Shown: piece after piece, positions 218-59,593 of the stretch | How the letters are laid out: the number at the start of each line of letters is the position of its first letter | Numbering within the stretch: position 1 is the stretch's first letter | From: an uncultured Alphaproteobacteria bacterium | GTDB lineage: Bacteria > Pseudomonadota > Alphaproteobacteria > Micavibrionales > Micavibrionaceae | Direction: 5' to 3' | NCBI GenBank assembly: GCA_963740205.1 | Contig: CAVUDD010000005.1 | Location: 368,860 to 432,859 of the forward strand | Length of the DNA stretch: 64,000 nucleotides | Translations under genes and position numbers: made by a program | The notes under the pieces: model-generated | What the model was told of the DNA's origin: nothing | The model's database searches: none | The model's input: the letters and a program-made list of their open reading frames with translations, nothing else

Positions 218-847
218 TCAATTAGATTTATTCAGCCCATATAAAATATGATCTTGGCGGAGGCCTTCAATTTCGACATAAGCTTTGGCGAGGCCCTCTT
301 CTTCAAAGCCAAGACGCTCAAGTAATTTACGGCTTCTAGTGTTATTGGGTAGAGTTGCTGCGTTCATTCTTTGTAATTTTAAAACAGAAAAGCCAAAACG
401 GATTATGGCGTCCAGTCCTTCATGCATAAGAGATTGCCCTTGTCTTTCCGCATCTATCCAATAGCCAAGCCAGCCATATTGCGCAGCACCTCTGCATACA
501 CTGTTAATATTGATACCCCCAATAAGCTCACCTGAAGGGCGTTCGAAAAGAAGAAAGGCATATGCATTATCTTCTTTCCATTCATGTTCCTGACGGTTGA
601 GTTTACGAGTAAAATATTTACGTTCATCCCAGCCTGTATTCCATTTTGGCTCGAACGGTGTCAGGTGGCTTTTGTTGTTGGTGCGAACTTCAATCCACTC
701 TTTCCAGTCCGTTTTTCTGGGCGCACGTATAGTCAGTCTTGGTGTCTTAATCAGGGTGTACTTATAAGAGGGGAAACCTTCTATTGTAAATTCTGATTTA
801 GTTTTGTTCATCGCGCGCTCAATTATTTGAAAGATATCTGTTTTCAA
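218..847 (-). CDS. GNAT family N-acetyltransferase (RimJ/RimL-like)
   Basis: 209-aa ORF with a TTG start. It has the RimJ-like layout (TPRLTIRAP...; ...QGQSLMHEGLDAIIRFGF...LQRMNAAT.P.N..S..LLERLGF). Confidence 0.7.
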   Translation of the reverse strand: MKTDIFQIIERAMNKTKSEFTIEGFPSYKYTLIKTPRLTIRAPRKTDWKEWIEVRTNNKSHLTPFEPKWNTGWDERKYFTRKLNRQEHEWKEDNAYAFLLFERPSGELIGGININSVCRGAAQYGWLGYWIDAERQGQSLMHEGLDAIIRFGFSVLKLQRMNAATLPNNTRSRKLLERLGFEEEGLAKAYVEIEGLRQDHILYGLNKSN

Positions 848-2403
848 GATGGGAAATCAAAAAGTCGGGCGATAGTTTATGTCCTGTCGCTTTCTTTATG
901 AGATCAGCAGGCGTATAGAGGCTTCCCATTTTATGAATGCGTGTATGAAGCCAATGTGTAATATCCTCGAAGTGCCCATTCTCTATCGAGCCATAGATTT
1001 TGGGAATATCGTCTTTCATCTTTTCAAAGATTTGGGCGGCAATAATATGCCCCAAGGAATAGGATTGAAAATATCCAAATTTGCCAACAAACCAATGCAC
1101 ATCTTGCAAGACACCTTGGGTATGGTTTTGTGGCATAACTCCCAATTTTTCATGCATCCATTCTGTCCAGTAGGCGGGGATATCTTTGACCTCGATTTTA
1201 CCTTCTATCAAATCACACTCAATTTGAAAGCGTAGGAAAATATGGAAGAAGTAAGTGACTTCATCGGCTTGTTTACGGTTTAGGGAGGGTTTGACCTCTG
1301 TTTTAATACGGTGCAGGTTTTCCGCGGTAAGCGATGGGTCACCAATAGTATGGAATAGACCCTCAAGGCGCGGTGCAAGAAACGTAAAGAACTCCGACGT
1401 ACGTCCAATCAGCATTTCAATAAATAGCGCCTGACTTTCATGGACTGTGGTGCCCATATCGAGTGCAACAGGTTGATAGGCCCATTCACCAGTAGCGGGT
1501 AATCCTTGCAGATAAATACCGTGCCCGCCTTCATGTAGGGCGGATTTCATAGAGTTCTAAAAAGTTCTTTGTATCCACGTTCTTGATAACAAGACGAGCA
1601 TCATCAGGTGTTCCACCTTCAACAGGCGAATGTCCTGTTTCATACAGAGCGCCTCTATTAAAATCAAACCCAAACAGACCAATAAGTGCTCGGTTAAGAA
1701 GCATTTGTGCTTCTGTTCCAAATGGTCCGCTCAAGGGAATGATTTCATCGCGCTGTTTTTGCCGGTCAATAATTTTAGGCATCATTTTGGTAAGCTCAAC
1801 ATCAAGCTTGTTAAACCATTTCCAAACAGTTGGCAGATCAAAGCCAGGGGAGTGATCTTGGACTAATGCCTCAAAAAGTGTTGAGCTATTACGCATTTTT
1901 GCTTTGCGCTCGGCGACGCGCCTTGTGTGATCCACGACTTTTTGTAAATGTTTTTCGGCCGTTGCCCAGTCACCATCAATCAAGATACCACGGTGTAGAC
2001 GACGCCCCTCATTAGCGATAAGAGCTGATTTCTCCATCAACTCATGATCCATAATGGCGTGTTTTTTATAATTATTGACCATACCTTTGAGGTTGGCAGT
2101 ATTCCATTCATCCCAATATTTAGGATGAGCATCAAGATGTTCTTGTGCTTCATCCAGCTCACGCTCGGCATCGCAACAAACAATATCATCATGGATGCGG
2201 CGCTGGAGGTAAGAAATTTGATCAATGCGGTTGCTATAGGCACCCTCGGGCATAGCAGTCAGGAAATCCCGCGAGATAATTTCAGCAATGGCTGCCAAAC
2301 GCCCGACGTTTCTGTGGCGACGCATTAGACGTTCATAGGCTTCACAAGGTAGAGAAGATTTCTTTTCAGCGGTCATGTCATCTACTATGTGAGAAGCCAT
2401 CAA
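819..2403 (-). pseudogene. M32 (Taq-type) carboxypeptidase, split by one frameshift
   Basis: ORFs 1531..2403 and 819..1550 overlap and together give a full M32 protein. The HEGGHGIY (HExxH), HESQ and DVHW...GYFQSYSLG motifs sit in the second ORF. Removing one base near 1555-1560 restores ...DTKNFLNSMKSALHEGGHG. Confidence 0.8.
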
Positions 2404-3025: not shown

Positions 3026-4880
3026 TTATTGATTGCCTATATATTTAAGCGGAAACCTCTTTGCAAAATAGCTAACACCAGCAGGTGTAAGGTGAAAACC
3101 ATCAAATGTCATCATGTCTTTATTTTCATCAAATAGAGCACATGTTTTATCGTTACAAAACATTTCTAAAGGGTCAATAAAAGGCACGCTTATGCTGTTT
3201 TCGATTTTTTTATTTATTATTAGAGTTTCTGGCTTTGGTAGTATGCGCATATCGTATCTTTTTGGTGTGGGCATATTAAGAATATCCTGTTGTGAATAGA
3301 TCATACGCTTTGTGCCGAAAACGATAAACTTGTCTCCGTATTCATCTACAAGATTTTTGAGACTCTGAGGTATGAAATCAATTTCCCATTCGTGCCAACC
3401 AAATGCAATAAAAACTATATCAGCGTCCTCCATCAGGTCTTCAGTTTTATCAGTAAAGCTTGTCGGCCTCACGACAGACTTTTTGTGAAGCTGGGGGGAT
3501 ATTGTGCTCAAAAGAGAGCGTTCAATATAGAGGTTACCGCAAATATTATTGACACGGACACTGCTGAATTGGAGCGGTTCATCCGTAGGAATTTCACTAA
3601 GAATATTTATAAGATCACCAGAGTTACTATCACCCACTATTAGGATTTTTTTTCCAGAATTTTCAACAAATGGCTTTCCCTCGTGTTGGTTTTTAATAAA
3701 CCATACTAGTTCGCCATAATTTTTACGTGATTGAAAAATCCGCATATCATCGTCAGAGTAGCGCCATAAATTACCTTTTGTTAATGTGCCAACGAAGCCA
3801 AGGCCACAAGTAAATAAGACTGCAATTATACTGAGCTTAAAAATAGCGCTTCTGCTAAACTTTGATTTGTCACGAAATGGGTTTTCTACGTATTTCCAGC
3901 TAAGATAGGATATAGGGAAAACAGCTATGGATAGTGCAAACATTAAAGTAGGTGTGAGGTCTTCATCTATAGTGTGGCGGGCGAAAGCGAGAATAGGCTG
4001 ATGCCATAGGTACGCGCTGTATGAAAGTAAACCGATCATGACAATTATTCGTATACTAAGAAGATGATAAACGAATGTTCCACTGTTGGCATAAATTATA
4101 ATAAGAGCCGTACCAATTGTAGGAACAAGTGCATATAAACTTGGAAAGGGCGTTTCTTTATCAAAATTAAAAATTGCAAAAAGAATAAATGCCAATCCGA
4201 ATATACTACCAACTTGTTGGAAAGGATTATCTTTTCTTATGGGTGTTTTATATAAATAAATTGCAACAAAAGCACCAATAAGAAGTTCCCATCCTCTCGT
4301 AGGTAGAAGATAGAAGGTGGGACTTGGCGCATTATAAGCCCCCCATTGTGCAAGTGATATACTAAAGTAAAAATGTGAGAATTAAAATTCCAATAATGGT
4401 GTGTAACCCCCAGCGCCAAAAAAGCAGGAAAAGTACAGGAAAAAATATATAGTATTGTTCTTCAACTGCTAGACTCCATGTATGAAGCAGAGGCTTTAGT
4501 TCGGCTGAGTGTCAAAGTATCCTGCCTGTGTCCAAAAGAAGATATTAGACCAAAAGGTAGAGGCAGAAATTATACTTTTCGAGAAGTCTTCCGCAGCATC
4601 GGGCAAGGAGGATAAAATAGGCAAATGGAATGCAGGAAAAAATAACAAGAAAGAGAGCGGGGAATATGCGTCTGGCTCTGCGCTCGTAAAAATGGATAAT
4701 GCTAAATTTACCTAGATGCATCTCTTTGAGAATAATACTGGTAATTAAAAATCCACTGATGACGAAAAAGACGTCGACACCAACAAACCCCCCGCTAAAT
4801 AGGGAAAATCCTGCGTGGAACAGGATAACAGGAAGAACGGCAATGGCTCTTAACCCATCTATTTCAGGACGGTATTTCAA
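3026..4880 (-). pseudogene. Acyltransferase-3 (OafA/YrhL-like) O-acyltransferase with a C-terminal SGNH domain, with multiple frameshifts
   Basis: The N-terminus (4545..4880) reads MKYRPEIDGLRAIAVLPVILFHAG...VDVFFVISGFLIT. The C-terminus (3026..4195) has a GDSNSGD SGNH block. The expected middle motifs (HTWSLAVEEQYY, FYLLPTRGWELLIGA) lie in other frames between about 4200 and 4620. Confidence 0.75.
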
Positions 4881-5736: not shown

Positions 5737-7328
5737 TCACTCCCACTCGATGGTGCCGGGTGGTTTGGATGTGATGTCGTAAACCACTCTGTTGATACCA
5801 CGTACTTCATTGATAATGCGGGTGGACACACGGCTCAAAAATTCGTGGTCGAAATGGTAGTAATCCGCAGTCATTCCATCGGTTGAAGTGACAGCGCGTA
5901 GCGCGCAGACAAAATCATAAGTTCTGTCGTCACCCATCACACCGACGGTTTTCACAGGTAGAAGCACGGCAAAGGCCTGCCATATTGCATCATAAAGACC
6001 TGCGTTTTTAATCTCTTCAAGATAGACCGTGTCGGCCTTTCTTAAAATCTCAAGTTTTTCACCAGTGATTTCACCGGGTAGGCGAATGGCAAGTCCAGGC
6101 CCGGGGAAGGGGTGGCGTTTGATAAAGTCCTCGGGCATACCAAGTTCTTTACCCAAGATGCGTACCTCGTCTTTAAATAATTCACGCAAGGCTCAACGAG
6201 TTGTAAGTCCATGCGTTCAGGCAAGTCCACCGACATTATGATGTGATTTGATTGTGACCGATGGCCCACCTGTAAAGGACACGGATTCAATCACATCTGG
6301 ATAAAGTGTACCTTGTGCCAAGAAATCAACCTCGCCAATACGCAGGGCGATTTCCTCGAACACATCAATGAAGGTCGCGCCAATAATTTTACGTTTCATT
6401 TCGGGGTCTGATACACCCTGTAGAAGTCCAAGAAAGCGTTTTCCTGCATCCTCATGGATAAGTGGAATGTTGTAATGATTACGGAACAATGAGACGACTT
6501 GGTCACTTTCCCCTGCACGCATCATGCCGGTGTCGACATAAATACAGGTTAATTGATCGCCAATTGCCTCGTGCAATAAAACCGCAGTCACGGATGAATC
6601 TACACCGCCTGAAAGCCCGCAAATAACCTTACCCTTGCCGACCTGTTTCCGAATTTTTGCAATGGCTTCTTCCTTGAACGCCGCCATAGTCCAGTCACCA
6701 TCACATTCGCACACATTATGCGTAAAGTTTTTGAGGAGTTGAACGCCGTGCGGGGTGTGAACAACCTCGGGGTGGAATTGTACGGCATAGAATTTACGTT
6801 TTTCATCCGCGATAAATGCATAGGGCGCGCCCTCGGATGTTCCAATAATTTTGAAACCTTCGGGCAGTTCTGTAACGCGGTCGCCGTGGCTCATCCAGAC
6901 TTGTTCATGTGCGCCTTCGTCCCAAACACCATCGGTAACAGGTGTGTTGGCCTTTACATCAACATAGGCACGACCAAATTCTTTGTGTTCGGAGGATCTC
7001 ACCTTGCCACCTAATTGTTGAACCATGGTTTGTTGTCCATAACAAATTCCAAATAGGGGCAATCCCATATTGAATAAACCATCGGGCGCGCGCGGAAAAT
7101 CTTCCCATGTCACACTTTGGGGGCCACCAGAAAGAATAACACCCTTGGGATTATAGGCCTGAATACGCTCTACGCTTGCCTGATTAAATGGCCAAATCTC
7201 GCAATAGACACCAGACTCTCTGACACGGCGGGCAATAAGCTGTGTAACTTGAAGCCGAAATCCAAAATAAGAATTCTATCGTGCTTCTTTTGGATTTCAG
7301 TGAGTGATGTTTTTTGTTCTGCTTGCAT
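5737..7328 (-). pseudogene. guaA: GMP synthase (glutamine-hydrolysing), interrupted by three single-base frame changes
   Basis: The N-terminus [16 protein letters not shown] runs from ATG 7328 and then goes out of frame near 7250-7256. The middle ORF is 6217..7113 (SGGVDSS ATP-PPase motif). [12 protein letters not shown] is in a third frame (6190-6222). The C-terminus is 5737..6189 (...KPPGTIEWE). Confidence 0.9.
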
Positions 7329-7433
7329 GAAATAGTTTTAGCGAAAGGATGGGTGAAAAGAAAGCTTTGAAAATAAAAAAAAATCCTTAAACATAAATTA
7401 CAAAATTAGAGAATTTTAAATTGGAAGTTTGAA

Positions 7434-47615: not shown

Positions 47616-47691
47616 GTCCCGTTCGTCTAGAGGCCTAGGACACCGCCCTTTCACGGCGGCAACACGGGTTCGAATCCCGTACGGGACGCCA
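47616..47691 (+). tRNA. tRNA-Glu (TTC)
   Basis: 76 nt. The acceptor GTCCCGT pairs with ACGGGAC, followed by G-CCA. The anticodon loop is CTTTCAC and the T-loop is GGTTCGAATCC. Confidence 0.9.
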
Positions 47692-47805: not shown

Positions 47806-47853
47806 GGTGGCTTTATTGGTGGCCTTCCAAAATGCAGAAATGTAAAGGCCACC
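47806..47853. repeat. GGTGGC(C/T)TT motif cluster upstream of the integrase: two direct copies plus one inverted copy (putative arm-type/operator sites)
   Basis: GGTGGCTTTATTGGTGGCCTT is at 47806-47826 and AAGGCCACC is at 47845-47853. The latter can pair with 47818-47826, forming a hairpin 4 nt before the int ATG. Confidence 0.5.
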
Positions 47854-47857
47854 AGAA

Positions 47858-49088
47858 ATGAAATTAACAGACCAAAGTTGTAAGTCCGCTAAACCTAAAG
47901 AAAAAACTTATAAAATGGCTGATGGTGGCGGCCTTTATTTCAGAAATTACGCCCAAAGGAAGTAAGTTGTGGCGCCTTAAATACAGGTTTTTGAAAAAGC
48001 AGAAGAAATTATCAATCGGCATATATCCAACTATTACACTTGCAGAGGCTCGTAACCAGCGCGATGAATCCAAGAGACTATTAGCCAATAATCTTGACCC
48101 TGCCGCCATTAAGCAAGAAATTAAGCATAAAATGCATAGTGAGGCCGCCAATACCTTCTCAGTGATTGCCCGTGAATGGTTTGATATAAAAAAGGTTGAA
48201 TGGTCTAAGGCTAATACCGTTCAGATATTAAATCGTTTAGAAAAAGATGTTTTTCCAATTATTGGCAAATATCCTATAAATATGATTACTCATAAAATGC
48301 TTTTAGACCTAGCACATAACGTTAAGGAACGAGGCGCTCATGAATTAGCTAAGCGTATCATTCAAATGTCTGTTCATATTTTTCGCTATGCAATTGTAAC
48401 AGGCAGAGCAGACAAAAATATTGCCGAAGATCTAAAGGGAATGGTCAAATCTGAACCCAAAAGCCATTTTGCGGCCATTGAAGCAAAGGAATTACCTGAG
48501 TTTATATCAGACTTGCGCAATCATAAAGCACGCCTCAACCATCAAACTTACTTAGCCGTAAACTTTATGATGCTTACTTTCGTTCGCACGAGCGAAATGA
48601 TCAAAGCTGAATGGAATGAATTTGATTTTGCAAATAGAGTATGGCTTATTCCTGCTCGCCGCATGAAAATGAATAAAGACCATATCGTGCCTTTATCACG
48701 CCAAGTAATAGCCATGTTAGAGGAATTAAGAGAGATTCATCATCACCCTAAATACGTTTTTCCTAGTCGCATAAACAGGGATAACCACATGAGTAATAAC
48801 ACTGTTCTTATGGCCATAAAGCGAATGGGGTATGCAGGACGCATGACTGGACACGGCTTTCGTGCGCTGGCTATGAGTACCATCATGGAGAAATTAGGGT
48901 ACAGACATGAGGTGCCTGATGCACAGCTTGCACATGCGAAAAAGGGGGATGTGGCAAGAGCCTATGATAGAGCCAAATTTTTAGAAGAGCGCACTTTAAT
49001 GATGCAGGAATGGGCTGATTATCTCGATAACATTGCACAAGGTGGAACAGTAATTAGTGGTAATTTTACAAGAAAAAAGAAGGCTTAA
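47858..49088 (+). pseudogene. int: P4-type tyrosine integrase (DUF4102 N-terminus), one frameshift near 47930-47945
   Basis: ATG 47858 gives MKLTDQSCKSAKPKEKTYKMADGGGL and then stops. The protein continues in ORF 47922..49088 (...SEITPKGSKLWRLKYRF...HGFRA...LAHAKKGDVARAYDR). Confidence 0.85.
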
Positions 49089-49661
49089 ATGTCTTGGTTA
49101 ATAAGATTACAAGCAGATGATTTTTTTAATGCTTATAGGGTATTGAAAGAAAGCGATGACTTAATGATAAGTAAGTTAGAAAATTTGTCTGGCAAACCAT
49201 TGGTGAGTAAAACAGCTTTTGGAGCGTTTCCTGTATCAACGCCAAGTATTGTATGTTTAGCGTTTGCGCTTGAGCTGTATATTAAAAATTTGTATGTAAT
49301 TTTGAAAACCTTAGATAGCGGTAACGAAAAAATTAAACCGCCGCGAGTGCATAATATTCTACAGCTTTTCATGAAGTTACCAGAAGAGGTGCAACAAGAA
49401 ATTAGAGATTTTTCTTCTATACAGGAAATAGTTGCTTTTTATTCAATGGAAATGTTTCCACTATACATAACTAAAGATCAAAACAAAAAACCTATTACCG
49501 ACACACTTGAACAGCAAATTTATAAAATTAGCGATGCATTTGAAAAGTGGCGGTATTCATACGAAAATGGGACACTTCAATTTGAAGAGTCTACAGCATT
49601 AGCTTTGATAGAGGCAGTTAAGTCAATTACTAGCAATGCTCAAAAACGCGCTGTAGCATAA
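49089..49661 (+). CDS. Hypothetical helical protein, possibly with a HEPN-like domain
   Basis: Its start abuts the int stop (TAAATG). ALELYIKNL...G...PRVHNILQLFMKL....ISDAFEKWRYSYE resembles the classic HEPN helix pattern. No search was run. Confidence 0.4.
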   Translation: MSWLIRLQADDFFNAYRVLKESDDLMISKLENLSGKPLVSKTAFGAFPVSTPSIVCLAFALELYIKNLYVILKTLDSGNEKIKPPRVHNILQLFMKLPEEVQQEIRDFSSIQEIVAFYSMEMFPLYITKDQNKKPITDTLEQQIYKISDAFEKWRYSYENGTLQFEESTALALIEAVKSITSNAQKRAVA

Positions 49662-49751
49662 AATATAATCTTTATGGATGATATGGTATTTATTGGTAAT
49701 TGGTAAGATATACGCCTATACTTTTCACATTATTATAATTTGGGGGTTAGA

Positions 49752-50470
49752 ATGGAAAGTGCTGATTACTGGCGTTTGTGCGACCATGTATCTCTATTTC
49801 AAGCAATCATGCTGATTTTAGGTTTTGACCCTTCTGACCAGCTTAGCTGGGATATGGAAGGGAGAAAAAACATTACCCTTCCACGTGGGTATGCTGCTTT
49901 AAAGACGGCAATATCAAACGCTGTTTTGAGTGGTCAAATTGAAGCAAAAAGTCAATCTTTGCTTGATGAGTATAATGGCGATGATTTACCCAATACAGTT
50001 GATATTGATAAGACTATTATTTCTGTAAATCATTAAAAAAATATCTTCAAGATAAAGGATTAAACGATGGCTTTTTCTTTCCAGAAGGGACTATTTTTGA
50101 AGAATATATGGATAAAGATAATCCAAACTATGCGCCTAAACTAGCCGCCGCTGTTATTGCTTGGAAAACAATTGCTAACAATCCAGAATTACAAAAAGGA
50201 AAAACGCCTAAGCAGGCACTCGAAAAGTGGTTGAGAGAAAATGCCAGTAAGTACAATCTTACGAAAGAAGATGGGACGCCAAATGAAACGGGCATACAAG
50301 AGATTAGTAAAATTGCAAACTGGAAACCAGAAGGAGGTGCGGCTAAAACTCCTACCCTTAGTACAGTTCAAAACAACTCACCTACCCCTACTAAAAAACC
50401 ATACAAACTAAGGGTTTTTGGTCAACATACAGTTACATATGATGAGTTAGAAGATGATATTCCCTTCTAA
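49752..50470 (+). pseudogene. Island-associated hypothetical protein ending in an SSB-like ..EDDIPF tail, one frameshift at the A7 run near 50034-50041
   Basis: ORF 49740..50036 and ORF 50108..50470 join in sense (...TIISVN / LKKYLQDKGLNDGFFFPEG...). The upstream extension of the second frame is open back to 50030. Confidence 0.55.
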
Positions 50471-50807: not shown

Positions 50808-51338
50808 ATGGCAAAGCGTCTTTACCCTCATAGACGCGTTAAATATTGGTATGCCTATGACATAGATGATATTTGCGCTTTATTTACTGAATTTGGGCTT
50901 CAGTGCTCAAACAGTACGTAAGTGGGTCAAACTTGGTCTTAAAACGATTGACGCGGGTAAGCCAACCTTAATATATGGCCTTGATCTTATTAAATATCTG
51001 AAACTCCAAAATTCTAAGCATAAGTGTCGCACTCAATTTGACGAATGTTTTGTATGAAATGTCAGGATGCTCGACCCATATTTCAACGCAAAATAGTCGT
51101 GAAACAAAAGGAGAGCTTTTTGAACCTCTCAGGCCATTGTCGTGAATGTAAAACAGTGATGTTTAAATCTTATAAGATCGATGATTTACCTCAAATTAAA
51201 CGAACCTTTCATTTGCTTGATGTTTTGGAATTATATGATTATGAGGCCTCCCCCTTTAAGACTCACTTACAAGGTCAAGACGCCATCCCGTCAAATGAGT
51301 CATTATACGGCGCGCATTATGGGGATTTATTTGAATGA
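50808..51338 (+). pseudogene. HTH + zinc-ribbon protein, two compensating frameshifts (about 50901 and 51045-51052)
   Basis: It has three segments: MAKRLYPHRRVKYWYAYDIDDICALFTEFGL, then SAQTVRKWVKLGLKTIDAGKPTLIYGLDLIKYL...FDE in an alternative frame, then FCMKCQ...GHCRECK... back in the original frame. Its stop overlaps the next start (ATGA). Confidence 0.55.
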
Positions 51339-52360
51339 AAAAAGAAGACAATAAACACTGTCACAATGCCGTAAACGAGAGAGTTAAATATAAATATCGT
51401 AAGCATTTACAACGTATAGCGCAGAGAGATGACAAGACTATTATAGCGGTTCTTAAACACATTCGTGATTATGAGCTATTCACGAACTTTGAAGGGTTTG
51501 AAAAATATAATGGTGATGTTGCTGATAAATATATTCAAGACATGTTTAAGCGTAAATTGGGTATGTCATATATCTCAGAAAATATCCGTATAGTTAAAGA
51601 GTTTTTAAAATGGCTAGAACGTCAACGCGGGTATAGAAGCAAAATTGACTACAATCAGATCGATTACTTGAATATATCGCGTAATCAACAAAAGGCCGCT
51701 AAGGCAGTTAAATATTCAAAGTCATACAGCTTTGAACAGATCATTAATACCGTACGCTCCATGCCTGATAAGACAGATAAGGAAAGGCGTGATAAGGCAA
51801 TTATATCGTTACAGGCTCTTTGCGGTTTACGTATTTCTGAATTACGCACGGTCAAGATGGAAAGCCTTATTGATGAAAGTGGGCAATATTTTATTTATGT
51901 TAGTCCTAAGAATATGAGTGTTAAATTTGCGAAAACTCGCCATGCTAATTTTATGCCCTTACCTGAGGACATAAAACAAAATGTGATTAAATGGCATGAA
52001 TATTTGAAGTTATTAGGCTTTAAGGGTGATGACCCTTTATTCCCTGTTGTGGATAATCGCTTTACAGAAACAAATTTACTACGCCAAACAATACGAAAAG
52101 ATGAGATTAAATCGGACACAACCATCCGCAATATATTTAAAAAAGCGTTTGGGCACGCTGGATACGAATATATTAAGCCTCATTCATTCCGAAAAACTAT
52201 TGCCAGATATGCTGAATTTCAAAAACCCGCTTTTTTAAACGCCGTAAGACAAAGCCTAGGCCACAGTTCAATTGATACAACCTTGAGCAGTTACGGTCAG
52301 TTATCGGATGCGGAGGCGAGGAGAACAATTTCCAGCGGAGAATTTAAGGATACAACCTAA
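51335..52360 (+). CDS. Tyrosine site-specific recombinase (second one in the island)
   Basis: GLRISELR...HSFRKT...LGHSSIDTTLSSYG carries the R..H.R..H..Y catalytic signature. The ORF is intact. Confidence 0.8.
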   Translation: MKKEDNKHCHNAVNERVKYKYRKHLQRIAQRDDKTIIAVLKHIRDYELFTNFEGFEKYNGDVADKYIQDMFKRKLGMSYISENIRIVKEFLKWLERQRGYRSKIDYNQIDYLNISRNQQKAAKAVKYSKSYSFEQIINTVRSMPDKTDKERRDKAIISLQALCGLRISELRTVKMESLIDESGQYFIYVSPKNMSVKFAKTRHANFMPLPEDIKQNVIKWHEYLKLLGFKGDDPLFPVVDNRFTETNLLRQTIRKDEIKSDTTIRNIFKKAFGHAGYEYIKPHSFRKTIARYAEFQKPAFLNAVRQSLGHSSIDTTLSSYGQLSDAEARRTISSGEFKDTT

Positions 52361-52384: not shown

Positions 52385-54067
52385 ATGTTTCATCATGATG
52401 GCTTAATTTATAAAGGATATATCACTGTGCCAACGTTAGATTTTAAGGGAAAAAATTATGTTTATTCCCATCATTTGTCTGTCCCCTTTCGTAGCTTAGA
52501 AGTTGATGCTAAAAAGTCCAAGCCTATAAAGGGTTCAAAGCCTAATATGGATGATAACCTAATTATCCAAGGCGATAATTTGCATGCATTGAAAGCTCTA
52601 TTGCCTAAATATGCAGGTAAAATCAAATGTATCTATATTGATCCGCCTTATAACACGGGGAATGAAGGATGGTGTTATAATGATAAGGTCAACAGTCCCA
52701 CTATGCGCGAATGGCTCAAGGATAATGCCAATCCTGTAGATAAAGATGATTTAGAGCGCCACGATAAATGGCTTTGCATGATGTGGCCACGGCTGCAATT
52801 ACTGCGTGAACTTTTGAGCGATGAGGGAGTTATCTTTATCAGCATAGATGATATTGAAGTTAATAACTTAAGGCTGATGATGGATGAATTATTTGGAGAT
52901 GATAACTTTGTTGCTTCGTTTATCTGGAAGTCTAGGCAAAATAAAGACAATAGGAATAAAAGTGGTGTTTCCGTTGATCATGAATATGTTGTTTGCTTCG
53001 CAAAAAATTTGAACACAAGAAGTTTTCGGGGAGATGAAAGAAAAGAAGGTCAGTACACAAATCCCGACCACGACCCAAGGGGTAACTGGTCAAGCGCTAA
53101 TATGGTAGGACTATTACCAGAAGATCAAAGACCTAATTGCCATTATGACTTAGTAAATCCTGAAACAGGTATAAATTATGGCAAACCAAATATGGGTTGG
53201 AGATACGATCAGAATACAATGGGTAGGCTTATTCAGGAAGATAGAATTTTATGGCCCGCGAGCGAAGATGGAAGACCCAGAAGAAAACTATTTGTTACAG
53301 AATTAGAAAATGAATATACAGGTTATTCTTCTTTAATTGGGAATGATATATATACGAGAACGGGCACTAAAGAATTAAGAGAATATATAAAAATTGATGG
53401 TTTTGAATTCCCTAAGCCCCATGCGCTAATCAAAGATTTCATCGTGCAAACAACAGGGCCAGACGACCTTGTTTTAGACTCTTTCGCGGGGTCAGGAACA
53501 ACTGCCCATGCGGTGCTCGCTATAAATAAAGAAGACGGCGGGAACCGTAAATTTATTTTGGTGGAGATGGAAGATTATGCTAACGATATTACGGCTGAGC
53601 GTGTACGTCGCGTTATTGACGGAGTGCCAAATGTAAAAGATGAAGCATTAAAAAATGGCCTAGGTGGATCTTTTACCTATTGCAAATTAGGAGATGAATT
53701 TGATGTTGAAAAAATATTAAGTGGAGAAAGTCTCCCAAGTTATACCGCATTGGCAAGTTATGTTTTCTATACGGTTACAGGGCAATCGCTGAATAGCGAG
53801 GTTAAAGAAAGCAGCAATTTCTTTATTGGTGAAACCGATTTGTTTGAAGTATATCTAATTTATAAAGATGATATTTCTTATCTACGCTCGAACGGGTCTG
53901 CACTTAACCAAGAAAAACTGGATGTTATTGCTGCGCACAAGCCAAATAACAAAAAACAAAAAGTTGTTTTTGCTAGCGCCAAATATATGAGTCAGGACGC
54001 ATTAAAACCGCATAATATTGTCTTTTGCCAAATCCCCTATGCGATACATAAAATAGCAGGAAATTAG
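52385..54067 (+). CDS. mod: Type III R-M DNA methyltransferase (Mod; N6-adenine/N4-cytosine class, DPPY)
   Basis: Motif IV (IDPPYNTGNEGW) comes before motif I (DSFAGSGTTAHA). The ORF is intact. The real start may be GTG 52427 (VPTLDFKGK). Confidence 0.85.
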   Translation: MFHHDGLIYKGYITVPTLDFKGKNYVYSHHLSVPFRSLEVDAKKSKPIKGSKPNMDDNLIIQGDNLHALKALLPKYAGKIKCIYIDPPYNTGNEGWCYNDKVNSPTMREWLKDNANPVDKDDLERHDKWLCMMWPRLQLLRELLSDEGVIFISIDDIEVNNLRLMMDELFGDDNFVASFIWKSRQNKDNRNKSGVSVDHEYVVCFAKNLNTRSFRGDERKEGQYTNPDHDPRGNWSSANMVGLLPEDQRPNCHYDLVNPETGINYGKPNMGWRYDQNTMGRLIQEDRILWPASEDGRPRRKLFVTELENEYTGYSSLIGNDIYTRTGTKELREYIKIDGFEFPKPHALIKDFIVQTTGPDDLVLDSFAGSGTTAHAVLAINKEDGGNRKFILVEMEDYANDITAERVRRVIDGVPNVKDEALKNGLGGSFTYCKLGDEFDVEKILSGESLPSYTALASYVFYTVTGQSLNSEVKESSNFFIGETDLFEVYLIYKDDISYLRSNGSALNQEKLDVIAAHKPNNKKQKVVFASAKYMSQDALKPHNIVFCQIPYAIHKIAGN

Positions 54068-54069
54068 GC

Positions 54070-56657
54070 ATGTCGGTCACACAACTTAACTCGCTTGCTT
54101 TAAAAGATTATCAGCAAAAAGTTTTGGATACGCTGAGCATTTATCTTGATACACTTGAAGGAACCTATAAGCGTGAAAAAAGAAACTACGCGTTTGATTT
54201 AGAAGAAGGAATTGAAGACGCCTTGCCACCACATAAATCCCCCTATTGCGCCAATGCATGGGAGAAGGTGAAAAGTAAGGTTGCCGTTCCGATCTATAAA
54301 AATGCGAATGGCCAGAATCTACCTAATAGCTGGACGGACAGGATTGATGGCACAGGGCGTAAAATCCCTAACATCTCATTTAAAGTCCCCACAGGGGGCG
54401 GTAAGACCCTTATGGCGGCGTGTTCGTTAGGGCGTATTGCAGGAGACTATTTCAAAACGGCAAAGGGACTCGTTTTATGGGTTGTCCCTTCATCTACTAT
54501 CTATGATCAAACAATGGATGCATTGGGAAATAAAGAACACCCTTACAGAATGCAGCTGGATATTGAATTGGGCGGACGCACCAAGAATATTAGAACGAGG
54601 CGACGCATTTGAATTGGCAGATGTAGAAAGCCAGCTTTGTGTGATGGTGATCATGCTACAATCTTTCAATGTCTCCGCCCGTAGTAAGGATGCTCGTAAG
54701 GTTTTCAGTGATACTGGAAAATACAGCTCATTCTTTCCCGCAGTTGATGATTATAGCGCAAATAATGAATTGCTTTCGCGTGTTCCTAATTTAATGGAAG
54801 CAGACATGCTGGAACGTGATGTTATTCAAGGCATTACTATCAAACATTCCTTAGGTAATGTTTTTCGCTTATGTCGTCCGATCGTTATTATTGATGAAGA
54901 ACATAAAGCGCGGTCACAATCAGCCATTCAAAATATCAATGAATTTAATCCAAAATTTATTTTGGAATTTTCAGCAACGCCACGCGATAAAAGTAACACA
55001 TTGGTGGATGTTGGCGGATATGCTTTAAAACAGGAACAAATGATTAAATTGCCTATACGCGTTGATTCAAGTGATCAGCGCGATTGGAAGACAACTTTAA
55101 ACGCCGCCCATTCAAAGTTACTGTCCCTTTCTAATGATGCCGCAAAGCTAGCAGGGAATAAATGGAACATATATTCGTCCAATAATGGTGATTATTGCAC
55201 AGCCTAGGCGACAAAATGATGATTATGATCACGTTGAAGATATTAAAAAATATCTTATGGACATATGCCAAGTGCAAGAACGCCAAATTAGGATAAAGTT
55301 ATCAGAAAAGAATGAGATTAAAGATGATGATTTAATGAGTAAGGCTTGTCCTGTTCAATATATTATCACCAAAGATGCCCTGCGCGAGGGATGGGATTGT
55401 CCTTTTGCGAGCGTTTTGACCGTTTTAATTCAAGCAAGAAGTGTGGAAGCCCTAACACAGTATATTGGCCGTGTATTACGCCAACCTTACGCAACAGAAA
55501 CCCCTATTGCCTCATTGAATGAAGCATATGTGTTTTGTAGCCGTCAAAATGTTGGGGATGCGGCAAAGGCGATTAAAGATGGATTAGAGGCTGAGGGAAT
55601 GGGCGACATAACGCAAAGCGTTATTAACGAGGGCGAAGGCGGTGGCGATATACAACGTCAAAAGCAGGTTGTTAAAAGAAACAAAAAATACGAAAACAAA
55701 ATTTTCTTACCTTCTTTATCTGCTGTTAATTCAAATAAAACAATATCGCCATTTGACTATTATCGCGACATTTTGGGCGAAATAGATTGGTCACATTACA
55801 AATGCTCAAAACTTCCTATCTTAGCGGATCAAAATCGTATCGACGTTGATACACGTACAGTTGATTATAAAGATAATATTTTAGGTGAATTTGAATTCAA
55901 AGATTACGAGATTGATCTTGATGATGACTTTTTCGCCCTAGAAGTTGAGTATTCTTTGTTAACATCGCAATTAACGGAAAAGATACCAAATCCATTGTAG
56001 GCAAAACGGATTTTGGATGATGTTGTGAAGGTACTGAAAGAAAAAGGGATAAGCGAAAAAATTATTGCTCTGTCAGGGCATGACATAGTCAAACAGATTA
56101 AAGATGATGCTTGGAAGTGGTTATTAATTAAATCTGAAAAGCTCTTTATTGAAAAACCGGATCATAATCAGATTTTATTGAAATTGTTGGCCGCCCCGCA
56201 TACAGAGTTAAATTGGGAAATGGGTGATCAACGCACAATTTATAAAAATCCTGATGAAGCTGAAGCTAGTGATTGGGATAAAAATCTATTCCAACCTCAA
56301 TTTAAAAGTAACTATAACGGCTTAGAAAAGCAGGTTGCAGCTTATATTAATCAAAGTAAGGCGGTTAAATGGTGGCATAGACTTGGCGTTAAGGGGACAG
56401 AATACGCCTTACAAGGTTGGAAGCGTGATAAGATTTATCCTGATTTCCTCATATACGGAGAAAATGACAAATATTATTTTTGTGAAACCAAAGGCAATCA
56501 CCTTGAAAACCCCGATAGTGAGTATAAGCAGAAAGTCTTTGAGTGTTTAACAACCCATTCAAATAAGCAAATCGGCGAATTTAAATTACTAGCAGGCGAA
56601 AAAGAAATCTCTTTTGATCTTATTTATGAGAATGAATGGGAAAGAAAAGTTGATTGA
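54070..56657 (+). pseudogene. res: Type III restriction enzyme Res subunit (SF2 helicase + PD-(D/E)xK nuclease), with two frameshifts and one in-frame TAG
   Basis: Has Walker A (PTGGGKT), a DEEH box (IIDEEHKA), REGWDCP and C-terminal IYPDF...CETKG. Frame changes lie near 54575-54600 and 55160-55190. The TAG at 55998-56000 is in the same frame as ORF 56013..56657. Confidence 0.8.
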
Positions 56658-56695: not shown

Positions 56696-58365
56696 ATGGC
56701 TAAATTATATGAAGGAAGTACAAGAGTTTATCTAGCAAAAGATAATCCGCATAAATTTATTAAAGAATTGAAAAAATTTCCAGAGAGCATTTTATTCGTA
56801 ATATATTACGGGGGAAGCAAATGGAATGACTTTGGTTTTAATACAAATTTCAAATTTAAAATATTTTATAATTTAGAAGAAATCTATGATGATAGTATTA
56901 AGTTCTCCTTCTTAGAGGAACCTTATCGTTTATTTAGAAAATTTGATGAAATTTTTATAAATAAGCAGGCAAATATAATTGATAGTAAAGACAGTCCTAA
57001 ATTTTTCACTATGCTCAATGATATGAGAGCATATAGAAACTTTGTTGATTTTTTCACTCCCAGCGAATCTACAGCAATATTATCTGCCGCGAATGATATT
57101 ATATGTCAAAAAATTCTTTCCTTCTCAGAGAGTTGGTATGAAGAAGCCTTAAATACCAAGGTATTTAATCGGTCTTTCATCAGGTCAGGTCAGGCATATT
57201 TTACGTTTCACAATGCGCAGCATGTATTAAATGGCTCTGAGTATAAAAGTATAGAAAAGATTCAAGGCGATTTTACGGCAAATTTTAAAATAGAAGGCAC
57301 TGAAAATGACTATAGTATAGATTTTAAATTTCACGATAGTGCACTTTTGCCCAATAGAATGTCGGTTATGATTGGTAATAATGGAGCAGGAAAAAGCCGA
57401 TCTTTTCATAATATTGCTTCTTCTTTGTTAGATGATGACGAAAGATTTCGTGATAAAGATGGTGGTCGACCAAAGTTAAGTAGACTGATTTGTATTTCAT
57501 CACCATCAGAATTATCAAAAACTTTTCCTAGATACCGTTCTAGGCCCCGTCTACCTTATCTGAAAATAGCCAATGGAAGAGGCGGGAGGTTCAATCTATG
57601 GCCGTGTGAGCAAATAATTAGACTTTTACGCCTAGAAGATAAATTTATAAGAGGGGATAGGTGGAATTTATTTACAAACGCTATTTATAAAGAATTTAAT
57701 CTCAGCGAGTTAGCTCTCCCATTCAAAAAAAACGTTGAAAATGAAGAATATGATATAGGACAAAAGTATATCCTTTTTAAGGATTTAGAAAATTTTAGAG
57801 AAGAACGCGGTCTAGAAACTTACGAAAAGATAGATAAAAAATCTGACCCAGTAAGAGTTGTGAATGATAAAATATTCCCTATGAGTAGCGGAGAGGTCTC
57901 ATTTATAAACTTAATCAGCACGCTGTGTCTCCATATTGAGAATGGAAGTCTAATTTTACTTGATGAACCTGAGAACTTCACCTTCATCCTAATTTAATTA
58001 CTGCGTTGGTTTCAGTGTTAAACAATTTACTCCAAGAAACAGGATCAATATCTATAATAGCGACGCACTCTGTATATTTTGTAAGAGAAGTTACGCGTAA
58101 GCAGGTTCACATTTTTAAAAATAGTAATAATAAAATTACATTGCTAAAGCCGCGTCTGAAAACTTTAGGTGCGGGGATAGATTCAATTTCACAGTTTATT
58201 TTTGAAGATGAGATAACTAGTCGAGTAATAGAAAATATAAAAGAAAAATTGAAGAAAAATCCTAGTGAAGCAAAAGAATTATATGAAAGTATAGAGGACG
58301 AACTGCCCTCGGAAGCCAAAATCGATCTTATTTCTATTATTGATAATAAGGTGGATGAGGCTTGA
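56696..58365 (+). pseudogene. ABC-type (AAA_15/AAA_21-like) ATPase, PtuA-like, with an N-terminal extension of about 220 aa; one frameshift near 57975
   Basis: Has Walker A GNNGAGKS (57374), signature SSGE, Walker B LILLDEPE, then a frame change, then LHLHPNLI...IATHS (H-loop) in ORF 58006..58365. Confidence 0.65.
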
Positions 58366-59249
58366 AAAAATTGAATCCTACAAATTTTGATGATGCTGCT
58401 GCATTAGAAAGTATGGCTTCTAATAAAGCTCTAAAAAGTTATGGTGAGCTTAACAAAGAGAAGCAGTTAATTTTAGATGCATATCAAATTTACTTGGATA
58501 ACGAAGGAAGTGGTTTAGGTTACAATAAGCCTAATGTATCTGATAAATTAAATCAGCATATGTTAGACCATTACAACTCTTCACCGAGCATAGTGAGGAA
58601 TACTATTGATTTCATTAGAAACTCATTATCACCAGATGTGTGTCCTATGTGTGGAAATTTAGGGTCAGGAGGGCAAATTGACCATATTTTCCCTAAATCT
58701 AATTTTCAAGAATTTGCGATTTTTACTAAGAATTTGGTTCCTGCGTGTAAGTGTAATAATTTGAGGGGATCTGCTTTTATAGGTAATGGAAGAGAAAGAG
58801 TATTACACCCATATTTTGACGATATTTTACAAGAAAGGCTATTGATAGCAAAATTTCTTAACGGGCAAGGTATGTTGGCAGCAGATACCCAAGTGGCTGG
58901 TTTAAATATTATAGATCAAAATGATGAAATTATGGAGGCTGTTAACTTTCATGTAGAAAAAATTGTAAAGAAAACAGCTATATTAGATTCTATTAGAAAA
59001 ACGTATGCACAATTCTTACGTAAACCAGATGTCTTTATAATAGGTATTCTTGACAGACCAATAGACATTGATGCATTCGTCGTTCATATTGAGCAACTTA
59101 TTAATAACTCTGATGAAGAGCATGGTAGCCTTAATAATTGGAAGTCTATACTATTTGCGGGCATATTAGATGATAGGGAATTGATGATAAAACTCGTTGA
59201 ACATATTAACGGATTAATAAGTAATTCTATTGATCCAAAATCAGTATAA
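58362..59249 (+). CDS. HNH endonuclease, PtuB-like
   Basis: CPMCG..(9)..IDHIFPKS...NLVPACKCNNLRG is an HNH/zinc-finger core at residues 94-135. Its TTG start overlaps the ATPase TGA (TTGA). Confidence 0.6.
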   Translation: MKKLNPTNFDDAAALESMASNKALKSYGELNKEKQLILDAYQIYLDNEGSGLGYNKPNVSDKLNQHMLDHYNSSPSIVRNTIDFIRNSLSPDVCPMCGNLGSGGQIDHIFPKSNFQEFAIFTKNLVPACKCNNLRGSAFIGNGRERVLHPYFDDILQERLLIAKFLNGQGMLAADTQVAGLNIIDQNDEIMEAVNFHVEKIVKKTAILDSIRKTYAQFLRKPDVFIIGILDRPIDIDAFVVHIEQLINNSDEEHGSLNNWKSILFAGILDDRELMIKLVEHINGLISNSIDPKSV

Positions 59250-59282: not shown

Positions 59283-59338
59283 AAATTTTTATTAAATAAA
59301 TTATTAATTTAAATCAGTTACTTAATGTCTTTGTTTGT

Positions 59339-59356
59339 ATCCCGTACGGCCAATTA
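59339..59356 (+). repeat. attR core (partial copy of the tRNA-Glu 3' end)
   Basis: ATCCCGTACGGCCAATTA. Confidence 0.7.
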
Positions 59357-59593
59357 TATCAACCATACAATCTGCACAATCTAAAAAAACAAAGGGCTTT
59401 GGGCCAATGTTTGTCTAAAGCCGTCTAGTGTTACCTATAAAATCAGATACGACTATTAGCTCTAAATCGATCATTTTTATTTTTTATATAAAAATACTGA
59501 TTTCCGCAGCTTTTCTTCTCATAACAGCCTTCTATATCATTGCTCAGGGAAAAATTCTGTTGCCTAGATATTCATTTGATAAGGACATTTTTG

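Follow-up and report, generated by a model that had tools for sequence, protein, structure and literature searches.

The last two genes of a genomic island in an uncultured alphaproteobacterium encode an ABC-type ATPase (A) and an HNH nuclease (B), and the ATPase starts with a long N-terminal region that could not be recognized when the sequence was first read. We asked whether this pair is an anti-phage module of the Septu type and what its N-terminal region may contribute. Here, the window is the whole stretch of DNA that was analysed (64,000 nucleotides); all coordinates refer to it, and all features are on its forward strand. We conclude that the A-B pair is probably a PtuAB-like (Septu-family) candidate anti-phage module of the PDC-M01 subfamily, in which an ABC ATPase is coupled to an HNH nuclease, with a mechanism proposed by homology with PtuAB.

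The A-B pair is the last cargo of a tRNA-Glu island

The island spans approximately 11.6 kb and is located at a tRNA-Glu gene (47616..47691), which forms its left border. At the right border (59333..59425; repeat families D14 and D1), the 3' end of the tRNA-Glu gene and the flank downstream of it are repeated in degenerate form; the copy of the 3' end GTTCGAATCCCGTACGG reads GTTTGTATCCCGTACGG there (59333-59349). The island ORFs of at least 300 aa comprised two recombinases, the methyltransferase gene of a type III restriction-modification (R-M) system (mod), the 5' part of the ATPase and, when its fragments were joined, res; there were no others. The A-B pair closes a mod-res-A-B cassette, in which mod (52385..54067) is intact and res (54070..56657) is disrupted by two 1-nt insertions (approximately 54586 and 55150-55165) and a TAG at 55998-56000. 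The intact ResIII (862 aa) of the closest relative, locus L081, aligned to res in three frames.

The mod-res-A-B order was also found in L081, where the genes are intact and the N6_N4_Mtase gene preceding res-A-B is 55% identical to mod of the window; locus L082 was likewise ordered. The gap between res and A was 38 nt in the window and 30 nt in L081 and L082. The GC content of the A-B pair was 0.33-0.35 versus 0.41-0.47 in the flanking chromosome, which agrees with the earlier impression, formed by eye, that the module was AT-rich. A promoter and terminator scan returned fewer promoter-like sites than shuffled sequences and nothing informative. By its PolA, which is 64-66% identical to that of Micavibrio and other alphaproteobacterial MAGs, the host can be placed roughly among the alphaproteobacteria.

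The ATPase carries a conserved N-terminal domain

The ATPase is encoded by two ORFs, 56696..57997 (433 aa) and 58006..58365 (119 aa, in a different frame), and the repaired protein would be about 556 aa long. Every motif named in the original prediction was found: Walker A, GNNGAGKS, at residues 227-234 (nt 57374-57397), the signature SSGE at residues 397-400 (nt 57884-57895), Walker B, LILLDEPE, at residues 419-426 (nt 57950-57973) and, both in the second frame, HLHP (within the predicted LHLHP) and the H-loop ATHS (nt 58060-58071). Most of the motifs were invariant in a family alignment (n = 35). The first part of the ABC head (57236..57975) contains the strands preceding the P-loop, Walker A, an insert, SSGE and Walker B, and ends at a frame break. 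The 3' part (57973..58365), in the -1 frame, encodes HLHP, the H-loop, C-terminal helices and the TGA stop. The protein matched Pfam AAA_21 (6.5e-10) above the gathering score.

An additional N-terminal module of approximately 220 aa had been predicted. The module exists but is smaller, approximately 180 aa, since the strands preceding the P-loop occupy residues 191-227 and the ABC fold begins upstream of Walker A. The accompanying statement that the P-loop of such ATPases normally lies within the first 40 residues holds for stand-alone Septu PtuA but not for retron PtuA, in which the P-loop is located near residues 90-110. Compared with stand-alone Septu, the window ATPase has approximately 180 more N-terminal residues (Walker A lysine K233 versus K43; PMC13096335).

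The N-terminal domain (N-domain; residues 1 to approximately 180, 56696..57235) consists of an alpha/beta part (1-107) and a helical part (110-178). It was conserved in 35 of 35 aligned homologues, with the motifs W43-N-D-F, FFTM (approximately 103), Y113-R114, ND (approximately 134), F157/F161/R163, HNA (approximately 173) and G180. The AF2 model of the domain had a pLDDT of 90.9 and a pTM of 0.88. No Pfam family matched the N-domain in the 29 members searched, the best fold relatives had E-values of 0.28 in the PDB and 0.12 in BFVD with nothing below 0.1, and the N-domain alone matched no PtuA chain by fold. As modelled, it is a confidently predicted fold without a relative in Pfam, the PDB or BFVD. 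The region, in which nothing had been recognized at first, did have matches in PADLOC, where the N-terminal 185 aa alone matched PDC-M01A (2e-7) and the PtuA1 profile PDLC00282 (9.5e-5). The domain is not peculiar to this locus, as its description as novel had implied; it is common to the whole PDC-M01 family. A profile search with the N-domain recovered 416 cluster representatives (50% identity clusters), and in full-length proteins, of approximately 530-585 aa, it was almost always located at residues 1 to approximately 190. The N-domain is essentially restricted to the PDC-M01-type ATPase. Rare family members carry an extra N-terminal DUF4062 or AbiJ_NTD3, domains that are familiar from conflict systems.

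The HNH nuclease and its coupling to the ATPase

The HNH nuclease gene (58362..59249) is intact, starts with TTG and encodes a protein of 295 aa with 67% full-length identity to the L081 partner. The protein comprises an N-terminal helical region (1 to approximately 85), a zinc-finger HNH core (94 to approximately 155) and a conserved C-terminal region (approximately 170-295). The predicted core was located as CPMCG..DHIFPKS..NLVPACKCNN at nt 58641-58757, and its catalytic and zinc residues (C94, C97, D107, H108, N124, C129, C131 and N132) were invariant in 48 HNH homologues. The C-terminal tail, which had not been recognized, is real but not locus-specific: it is conserved family-wide and covered by PDC-M01B profiles. 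The Pfam HNH score of the protein was 16.4, below the gathering score of 21.4. A PDB profile search with the HNH family returned a generic HNH endonuclease, 4h9d (E 0.04), and spurious S100 matches; no PtuB chain was among the matches.

The translational coupling of the two genes, proposed earlier from a TTG start inside the TGA stop, was borne out at 58362-58365, where the TTG of B (58362-58364) lies over the TGA of A (58363-58365) in a 4-nt overlap. The closest relative has ATGA at this position. Start/stop overlap was found across the family: among 61 related loci, the overlap was 4 nt in 27 and 8-14 nt in 16, and the start and stop lay within 3 nt in the rest. TTG served as the start of B at 6 of the 61 loci.

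Frame breaks in the window

ORF frames and the alignment to the closest relative both placed a single break in the ATPase near 57975, as predicted. The break is located at 57973-57975, between Walker B and the H-loop, and the alignment to the ATPase of the closest relative changes frame there, covering 56696-57973 before the switch and 57973-58362 after it. Where the relative reads GAAACGCACC, the window reads GAGAACTTCACC, which amounts to a net +2 nt with respect both to this homologue and to the invariant family spacing DEPE-T-HLHP. A one-base repair would insert an extra residue within this motif. Programmed frameshifting was considered and rejected, as the break has no X_XXY_YYZ slippery site and readthrough, too, would put an additional residue into the invariant spacing.

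With the reading frame of its ATPase interrupted between Walker B and the H-loop, this copy should be non-functional as sequenced, provided that the break is not an artefact of assembly. Further, the window holds frame breaks in res, an integrase, guaA (6157-6252), an M32 peptidase and an acyltransferase, and the ATPase break is therefore not callable as real; poor consensus or real decay could each explain the frame breaks. The idea that the lesions were confined to the island, and hence real decay, was dropped, because the split M32 peptidase, acyltransferase and guaA lie elsewhere in the window.

Relationship to PDC-M01, Septu and other systems

PDC-M01 is a phage-defence candidate of Payne et al., with the cassettes FAM_00215>>FAM_01890 and FAM_00215>>FAM_02157; the definition of the PDC systems started from cassettes lying within BREX, DISARM and type I R-M systems, and the PDCs are candidates by the source's own account (10.1101/2024.01.29.577857). 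The ATPase matched the PADLOC PDC-M01A profile PDLC04242 (2.1e-58, 196 bits) at collinear profile positions and seven more PDC-M01A profiles below 1e-28. The HNH protein matched the PDC-M01B profile PDLC04271 (9.9e-29; residues 1-278 versus profile positions 1-270 of 291), and the best 25 PADLOC matches listed for it were all PDC-M01B. These near full-length matches cover the N-domain and the HNH tail. Further, the window pair has the PDC-M01 arrangement (A then B, adjacent, on the same strand) and shares the family habit of sitting inside R-M operons. It differs in lying behind a type III, not a type I, R-M system, and in its frame-broken ATPase, whereas PDC-M01 calls for two intact genes. 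Overall, the pair is an ordinary further member of the catalogued candidate family PDC-M01.

Stand-alone Septu (PtuA/PtuB; Doron 2018) is represented by the structures 8ee4, 8eea and 8sux and by the E. coli B88 system (PMC13096335). The window pair has the Septu architecture, with an AAA_15/AAA_21 ATPase gene followed by an HNH nuclease gene in a single operon. Profile searches, as had been proposed, gave significant matches for the ATPase to PADLOC PtuA1 PDLC00282 (1.9e-32, weaker than the PDC-M01A scores) and, as noted above, to AAA_21; further PADLOC PtuA profiles matched more weakly. When the ATPase was searched with Foldseek, every chain in ranks 1-38 was a PtuA, from either retron I-A or Septu (E 3e-9 to 4e-6), with a TM of approximately 0.3 and 11-14% identity. 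In contrast, the ATPase scored 38 bits against NCBIfam PtuA NF041760, for which the cut-off is 500, and the TIGR02646 and PtuB NCBIfam profiles gave no match to the HNH protein at E <= 1. TIGR02646 matched weakly in 14 of 48 members of the HNH family (best 4.2e-4). The original view of a Septu-related module was thus upheld as to relatedness, but not as to strict PtuA/PtuB membership.

The H-to-N spacing of the HNH core is 16 residues in both systems (H108/N124 in the window and H75/N91 in Septu; PMC13096335). In contrast to stand-alone Septu, the HNH protein of the window is longer at its N-terminus by approximately 30-50 residues and ends in a conserved region of approximately 125 aa, and neither PtuB nor TIGR02646 matches its sequence significantly. 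Walker A and Walker B are separated by 190 aa in the window versus 273 aa in PtuA of E. coli B88 (PMC13096335), and the oligomer may therefore differ. Septu of E. coli B88 loses defence in Walker A/B and HNH mutants and cleaves tRNA-Tyr on infection (PMC13096335).

The PtuAB proteins of type I-A retrons (Ec78/Eco7 and Ec83; 9n6b, 9nnb, 9e90 and 9kjx) were the top Foldseek matches (E 3e-9). The retron ATPase also has an N-terminal extension, which docks a regulatory partner, binding the reverse transcriptase and ncRNA (PMC12819146). Because of this docking, the N-domain of approximately 180 aa is, by analogy, most likely an adaptor or sensor surface. Unlike in the retrons, no reverse transcriptase gene was evident among the island ORFs of at least 300 aa, and mod and res lie upstream.

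TIGR04435, named 'restriction system-associated AAA family ATPase', was the best NCBIfam match for each of the 35 family members; the matched positions were collinear (394-535 versus 396-548 of 568), and R-M association is common to both. The window ATPase scored 65.3 bits versus a cut-off of 300 and all 35 members fell below this cut-off (best E 1.2e-24); TIGR04435 is therefore a sister family, not an identical one. PrrC-EcoprrI and PARIS likewise couple an ABC-type ATPase to a nuclease in or beside R-M operons. However, they use an anticodon nuclease or TOPRIM instead of HNH, and homology was detectable only in the ABC core.

Distribution of the family

More than 230 ATPase homologues of 540-565 aa carry the N-terminal module, with 90-100% of the query covered. 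A search for homologous pairs, which the original prediction had called for, found the HNH partner directly downstream of the ATPase at 76 of 80 loci; the remaining four are contig ends, and the partner was thus present in all 76 testable genomes. PDC-M01 is widespread: when grouped at 50% identity it comprises 416 clusters, and its members come from Proteobacteria, Verrucomicrobia, Bacteroidota, Campylobacterota and Bdellovibrionota. The genes around the family loci included type I R-M, AbiEii, BrxL/PglZ, GmrSD, McrBC, ABC-3C, DarT and Mrr defence genes, and also integrases. The window copy and its nearest relative (65% identity) form a long separate branch that is approximately 35% identical to the remaining family.

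Proposed defence function and alternative explanations

The Septu-family defence reading is favoured because of the PDC-M01A/B and PtuA1 profile matches and the PtuA fold matches. It is also favoured because the pairing and the start/stop overlap are family-wide, the neighbourhoods are rich in defence genes and the closest relative has the mod-res-A-B order, and because Septu motif mutants lose defence (PMC13096335) and rare members are fused to DUF4062 or AbiJ_NTD3. By homology with the solved PtuAB complexes, A would oligomerise via its ABC heads, bind the HNH nuclease B and keep it in check. Release or activation of the nuclease would then follow a phage cue linked to A's nucleotide state, and the nuclease would cut nucleic acid, either by nicking DNA or by cleaving tRNA in the way described for PtuAB of Septu and retrons. 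Such cutting would stop phage growth, with host growth paid as the cost. We counted against the defence reading that PDC-M01 members are still candidates, that scores were far below the NCBIfam cut-offs for PtuA and TIGR04435, that the HNH protein had no PtuB match in the PDB and a sub-threshold Pfam HNH score, that the fold TM was approximately 0.3 and that the ATPase is frame-broken.

PrrC is an anticodon nuclease tied to EcoprrI, and PARIS reacts to anti-restriction proteins. Similarly, the A-B pair could be tied to the adjacent R-M enzyme, with the N-domain contacting the R-M complex or an anti-restriction protein and the HNH nuclease firing when restriction is blocked. The pair follows R-M genes of two types in an operon-like manner, mod-res in the window, L081 and L082 and hsdR-hsdM-hsdS at about nine loci; hsdM was present in the flank at 15 of 80 loci, and the type I-linked loci all belong to one major clade, which also includes the window copy. 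The name of the best NCBIfam relative, TIGR04435, and the broken state of both res and the ATPase beside intact mod and HNH genes point the same way. However, about four-fifths of the loci have no R-M gene within 8 kb, and independent defence systems are reported to embed quite generally in R-M, BREX or Hma operons (10.1101/2024.01.29.577857). Further, frame breaks occur in unrelated genes of the window as well; that both res and A were lost may therefore be without meaning. We therefore regard a tie to restriction as unlikely. Decidedly unlikely is the more specific proposal that the N-domain, as a previously undescribed fold, couples a Septu-type ATPase-HNH effector to R-M enzymes or phage anti-restriction proteins, as a second-line guard that fires upon disabled restriction.

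It is highly improbable that the pair senses no phage and acts as a toxin-antitoxin-like stabiliser of the island or of the mobile R-M cassette. Carriage on islands, on plasmids in a few cases (14 of 72,556 records) and on approximately nine prophage-like contigs would fit such a role, as would the AAA_21 annotation as an AbiEii/type IV toxin-antitoxin domain. Retron-type PtuAB is indeed toxic when unrestrained, but this toxicity requires both proteins and hence leaves no separate antitoxin (PMC12819146). Moreover, the family resides mostly in defence-rich neighbourhoods, and the putative toxin, HNH, survives here with a broken partner and no sign of consequence. Finally, the frame errors in the window are the sole support for the idea that an assembly error joined a separate gene for the N-terminal 220 aa to the ATPase, which had been named as grounds for abandoning the prediction, or that the whole feature is a chance ORF. 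Such a fusion was excluded by the continuous architecture and invariant N-terminal residues shared by the more than 230 homologues from many phyla and by the N-domain's position in the cluster representatives, and this explanation has virtually no probability.

For the locus itself little follows: the window copy is probably an inactive or mis-assembled member of a module already flagged by a public defence-finder, and the intact P0002 pair (locus L081) is the better experimental object. If the pair does guard restriction, this dependency would account for the joint frame breaks of res and the ATPase in the window. R-M operons of type I or type III repeatedly end with the pair in one major clade, which raises the possibility that a Septu-type effector has been wired to restriction.

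Structure of the ATPase-HNH pair

The pair is encoded by three ORFs on the forward strand: the 5' part of the ATPase (56696..57997, 433 aa), its 3' part in a different frame (58006..58365, 119 aa), and the HNH nuclease (58362..59249, 295 aa), whose TTG start overlaps the TGA of the second ORF. When joined, the first two ORFs encode an ABC-type ATPase of approximately 556 aa with Walker A (GNNGAGKS, residues 227-234), the signature SSGE, Walker B (LILLDEPE), HLHP and the H-loop ATHS. Across 35 aligned homologues, most of these motif residues did not vary. The nuclease possesses a zinc-finger HNH core (CPMCG..DHIFPKS..NLVPACKCNN), of which the core cysteines, D107-H108, N124 and N132 were invariant in 48 homologues, and it aligned with the solved HNH endonuclease 4h9d. 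The GC content of the pair was 0.33-0.35 compared with 0.41-0.47 in the surrounding chromosome. Thus, the translationally coupled, AT-rich ATPase-HNH pair of the original prediction was confirmed, because the ORFs, motifs, HNH core and low GC content were all present.

Frame lesions in the ATPase and elsewhere in the window

The closest relative of the ATPase (P0002, 65% identical) is an intact protein of 555 aa. It aligned with 56696-57973 in one frame and with 57973-58362 in another, and the frame is therefore broken between Walker B and the H-loop, as had been noticed. At this site the window reads GAGAACTTCACC and P0002 reads GAAACGCACC, a net gain of 2 nt in the window against the invariant DEPE-T-HLHP spacing of the family; a one-base repair leaves an extra residue within this motif. 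No slippery heptamer was present at the break, which makes programmed frameshifting unlikely as judged from the sequence.

The type III restriction gene res (54070..56657) is also disrupted, by two 1-nt insertions (~54586 and ~55150-55165) and by a stop codon at 55998-56000 (GAG to TAG). Decay restricted to the island was considered and dropped, because three genes elsewhere in the window, all on the reverse strand, are broken as well. The M32 carboxypeptidase gene (819..2403) is split at ~1540 (Pfam positions 3-250 and 256-489), the acyltransferase-3/SGNH gene (3026..4880) lacks its central portion (positions 98-221), and guaA (5737..7400) has at least three frame breaks. In guaA, a +1/-1 pair of shifts lies 40 nt apart at 6157-6252, where the translation reads GGL, 11 residues not shown here, and LRELF; a further shift is located close to the GATase N-terminus. 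Such a pattern is suggestive of errors in the consensus or of an old housekeeping pseudogene. The frame breaks of the window fall into two clusters, at 0.8-7.4 kb and 47.9-58 kb, and no split genes were evident between 7.4 and 47.9 kb. Since the sequence comes from a metagenome assembly of an uncultured alphaproteobacterium and breaks also occur off the island, locally poor consensus and real pseudogenisation are both plausible.

Assignment to PDC-M01

Against PADLOC-DB, the ATPase matched PDC-M01A (2.1e-58, collinear profile positions) and the nuclease matched PDC-M01B over its whole length (1e-28). The Septu PtuA profiles matched the ATPase less strongly (best 1.9e-32). In the pair, Pfam recognised AAA_21 (6.5e-10) and, below threshold, HNH, and nothing else. 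For the ATPase, the NCBIfam scores were 65 bits with TIGR04435 ('restriction system-associated AAA family ATPase'; cut-off 300) and 38 bits with retron PtuA (cut-off 500), a pattern shared by 35/35 aligned homologues; the nuclease had no match. Only 14 of 48 members of the nuclease family matched PtuB/TIGR02646 (best 4e-4), a faint relation by sequence. The whole ATPase was modelled with AlphaFold (pLDDT 83.5), and the 38 best PDB matches of this model were PtuA chains from Septu and from retron type I-A (E 3e-9 to 4e-6), but with a TM of only ~0.3 and 11-14% identity. The proposed Septu-type identity thus holds as a weaker resemblance in profile and a low-TM resemblance in fold; PDC-M01 is the best match, and the NCBIfam PtuA score lies below its cut-off.

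PDC systems are 145 'phage defence candidates' that Payne and co-workers derived from cassettes lying within BREX, DISARM and type I R-M systems, and that were later put into PADLOC; PDC-M01 rests on two two-gene cassettes (10.1101/2024.01.29.577857). In a Bacillus cereus survey, proteins called Septu by PADLOC were sometimes also called PDC-M01 (PMC11811056).

Conservation of the pair and of the N-terminal domain

We fetched 80 loci from species-representative genomes of Proteobacteria, Verrucomicrobia, Pedobacter, Sulfurovum and Bacteriovoracaceae. A full-length nuclease homologue lay directly downstream of the ATPase in 76, and the other four loci stop at a contig edge; the homologues thus co-occur as a pair, and start-stop overlap of the two genes is the rule across the family. 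The partner nucleases were 283-297 aa long. The C-terminal tail of the nuclease is therefore family-wide rather than peculiar to this copy, and its conserved residues include H197 and N258-x-W260-x-S262.

A search of 5.8 billion proteins detected more than 230 ATPase homologues, nearly all 540-565 aa long (32-40% identity). They are continuous over 90-100% of the query and carry N-terminal invariant residues, which refutes the explanation that the N-terminal region is a separate gene fused to the ATPase by an assembly error. In the 35-homologue alignment, the invariant or near-invariant residues of this region were W43-N-D-F, FF at ~103, Y113-R114, D134, F157, F161, R163, N173-A174 and G180. 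The module had been put at about 220 aa; it is closer to 180 aa, because the ABC fold begins before the P-loop: the profile alignment to elongation factor 3 starts at position 174, and the model has strands preceding the P-loop at 191-227.

The model of the N-domain alone is confident (pLDDT 90.9, pTM 0.88) and shows an alpha/beta portion with a helical one after it. No Pfam family was found for it in 29/29 members, and fold searches of the PDB (best E 0.28) and BFVD (best E 0.12) gave no relative. The N-terminal 185 aa alone were recognised by PDC-M01A profiles (2e-7) and by one PADLOC profile for PtuA (9.5e-5), and the domain is therefore already within existing defence-finder models. Accordingly, "uncharacterised" stands in respect of Pfam and fold, whereas "novel" does not, the domain being family-wide and covered by PADLOC profiles. 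Its profile retrieved 416 cluster representatives from 1.84 billion proteins; in full-length proteins the domain is N-terminal in ATPases of ~530-585 aa. A few rare longer members (P0009, P0046, P0166 and P0169; 705-812 aa) carry an extra DUF4062 or AbiJ_NTD3 before it.

Genomic context

The island (~11.6 kb) adjoins a tRNA-Glu gene (47616..47691), and the pair is its last cargo. A GGTGGCC(T)nGGTGGCC motif is repeated at 47806 and 59261, and at the right border the tRNA 3'-end (59333-59349) and the downstream flank (59387-59425) recur in degenerate form. A P4-type integrase, whose first ~25 codons (MKLTDQSCKSAKPKEKTYKMADGGGLY) lie in another frame than the rest (47922..49088), is followed by small ORFs of 190, 98, 120 and 97 aa (49089..50470 and 51045..51338); Pfam gave no match for the 190-aa ORF. 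A second tyrosine recombinase (51335..52360) lies directly upstream of an intact type III mod (52385..54067), which is followed by res and the pair. The P0002 locus (L081) has the same integrase-...-mod-res-ATPase-nuclease order with all genes intact, and there a recombinase (L081:349-1440) 30% identical to the second one of the window precedes mod. The R-M genes and the pair may therefore move as a cassette together with a recombinase of their own.

Type I R-M genes recur beside the pair: hsdR-hsdM-hsdS-ATPase-HNH lay on one strand in ~9 of the 80 loci, and hsdM was within the flank in 15. These type I-linked loci all belong to the major clade, which also includes the window copy. The five-gene cassette was seen in different marine gammaproteobacterial genera (L010, L013, L016, L020, L025, L031, L047, L057 and L060). 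HsdR/HsdM identity between most of these cassettes was 54-84%, with L060 far more distant (34-37%). Their similarity across genera suggests, at the sequence level, that the cassette is a mobile unit. Other neighbours were AbiEii, BrxL/PglZ, GmrSD, McrBC, ABC-3C, DarT, Mrr and integrases. Plasmid members of the family were found in 14 of 72,556 records, and a few members lay in prophage-like contigs.

Possible mechanism and relation to R-M systems

The PtuAB complex is a hexameric assembly whose DNA nicking is lowered by ATP. Defence by stand-alone Septu requires the PtuA Walker A/B and PtuB H-N-H motifs and has abortive-infection features, infection leading to tRNA-Tyr cleavage (PMC13096335). 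Retron PtuAB is a tetramer restrained by the RT-msDNA complex, which PtuA contacts via its own N-terminal extension (PMC12819146). By homology with these solved systems, the ATPase of the pair would oligomerise, hold the HNH protein and release or activate it upon a phage cue, and the N-domain would serve as a sensor or adaptor surface. Stoichiometry and trigger may differ from those of Septu, because the ATPase has ~180 extra N-terminal residues and a shorter Walker A to Walker B stretch (190 aa vs 273 aa), and the nuclease is longer.

Among the rivals under ALTERNATIVES, one links the pair functionally to the R-M enzyme beside it, as a guard of the PrrC or PARIS kind; its attraction is that the pair is placed in operons after two R-M types. 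However, most loci lack nearby R-M genes, and such embedding is a known general habit of defence cassettes. That the pair is an addiction module is possible but less well supported. We concluded that the pair is an ordinary, already catalogued candidate defence pair, of which this copy has a broken ATPase frame. The residual interest lies in the unassigned N-terminal fold of the family and in how repeatedly the family is placed in R-M operons, rather than in the window locus.
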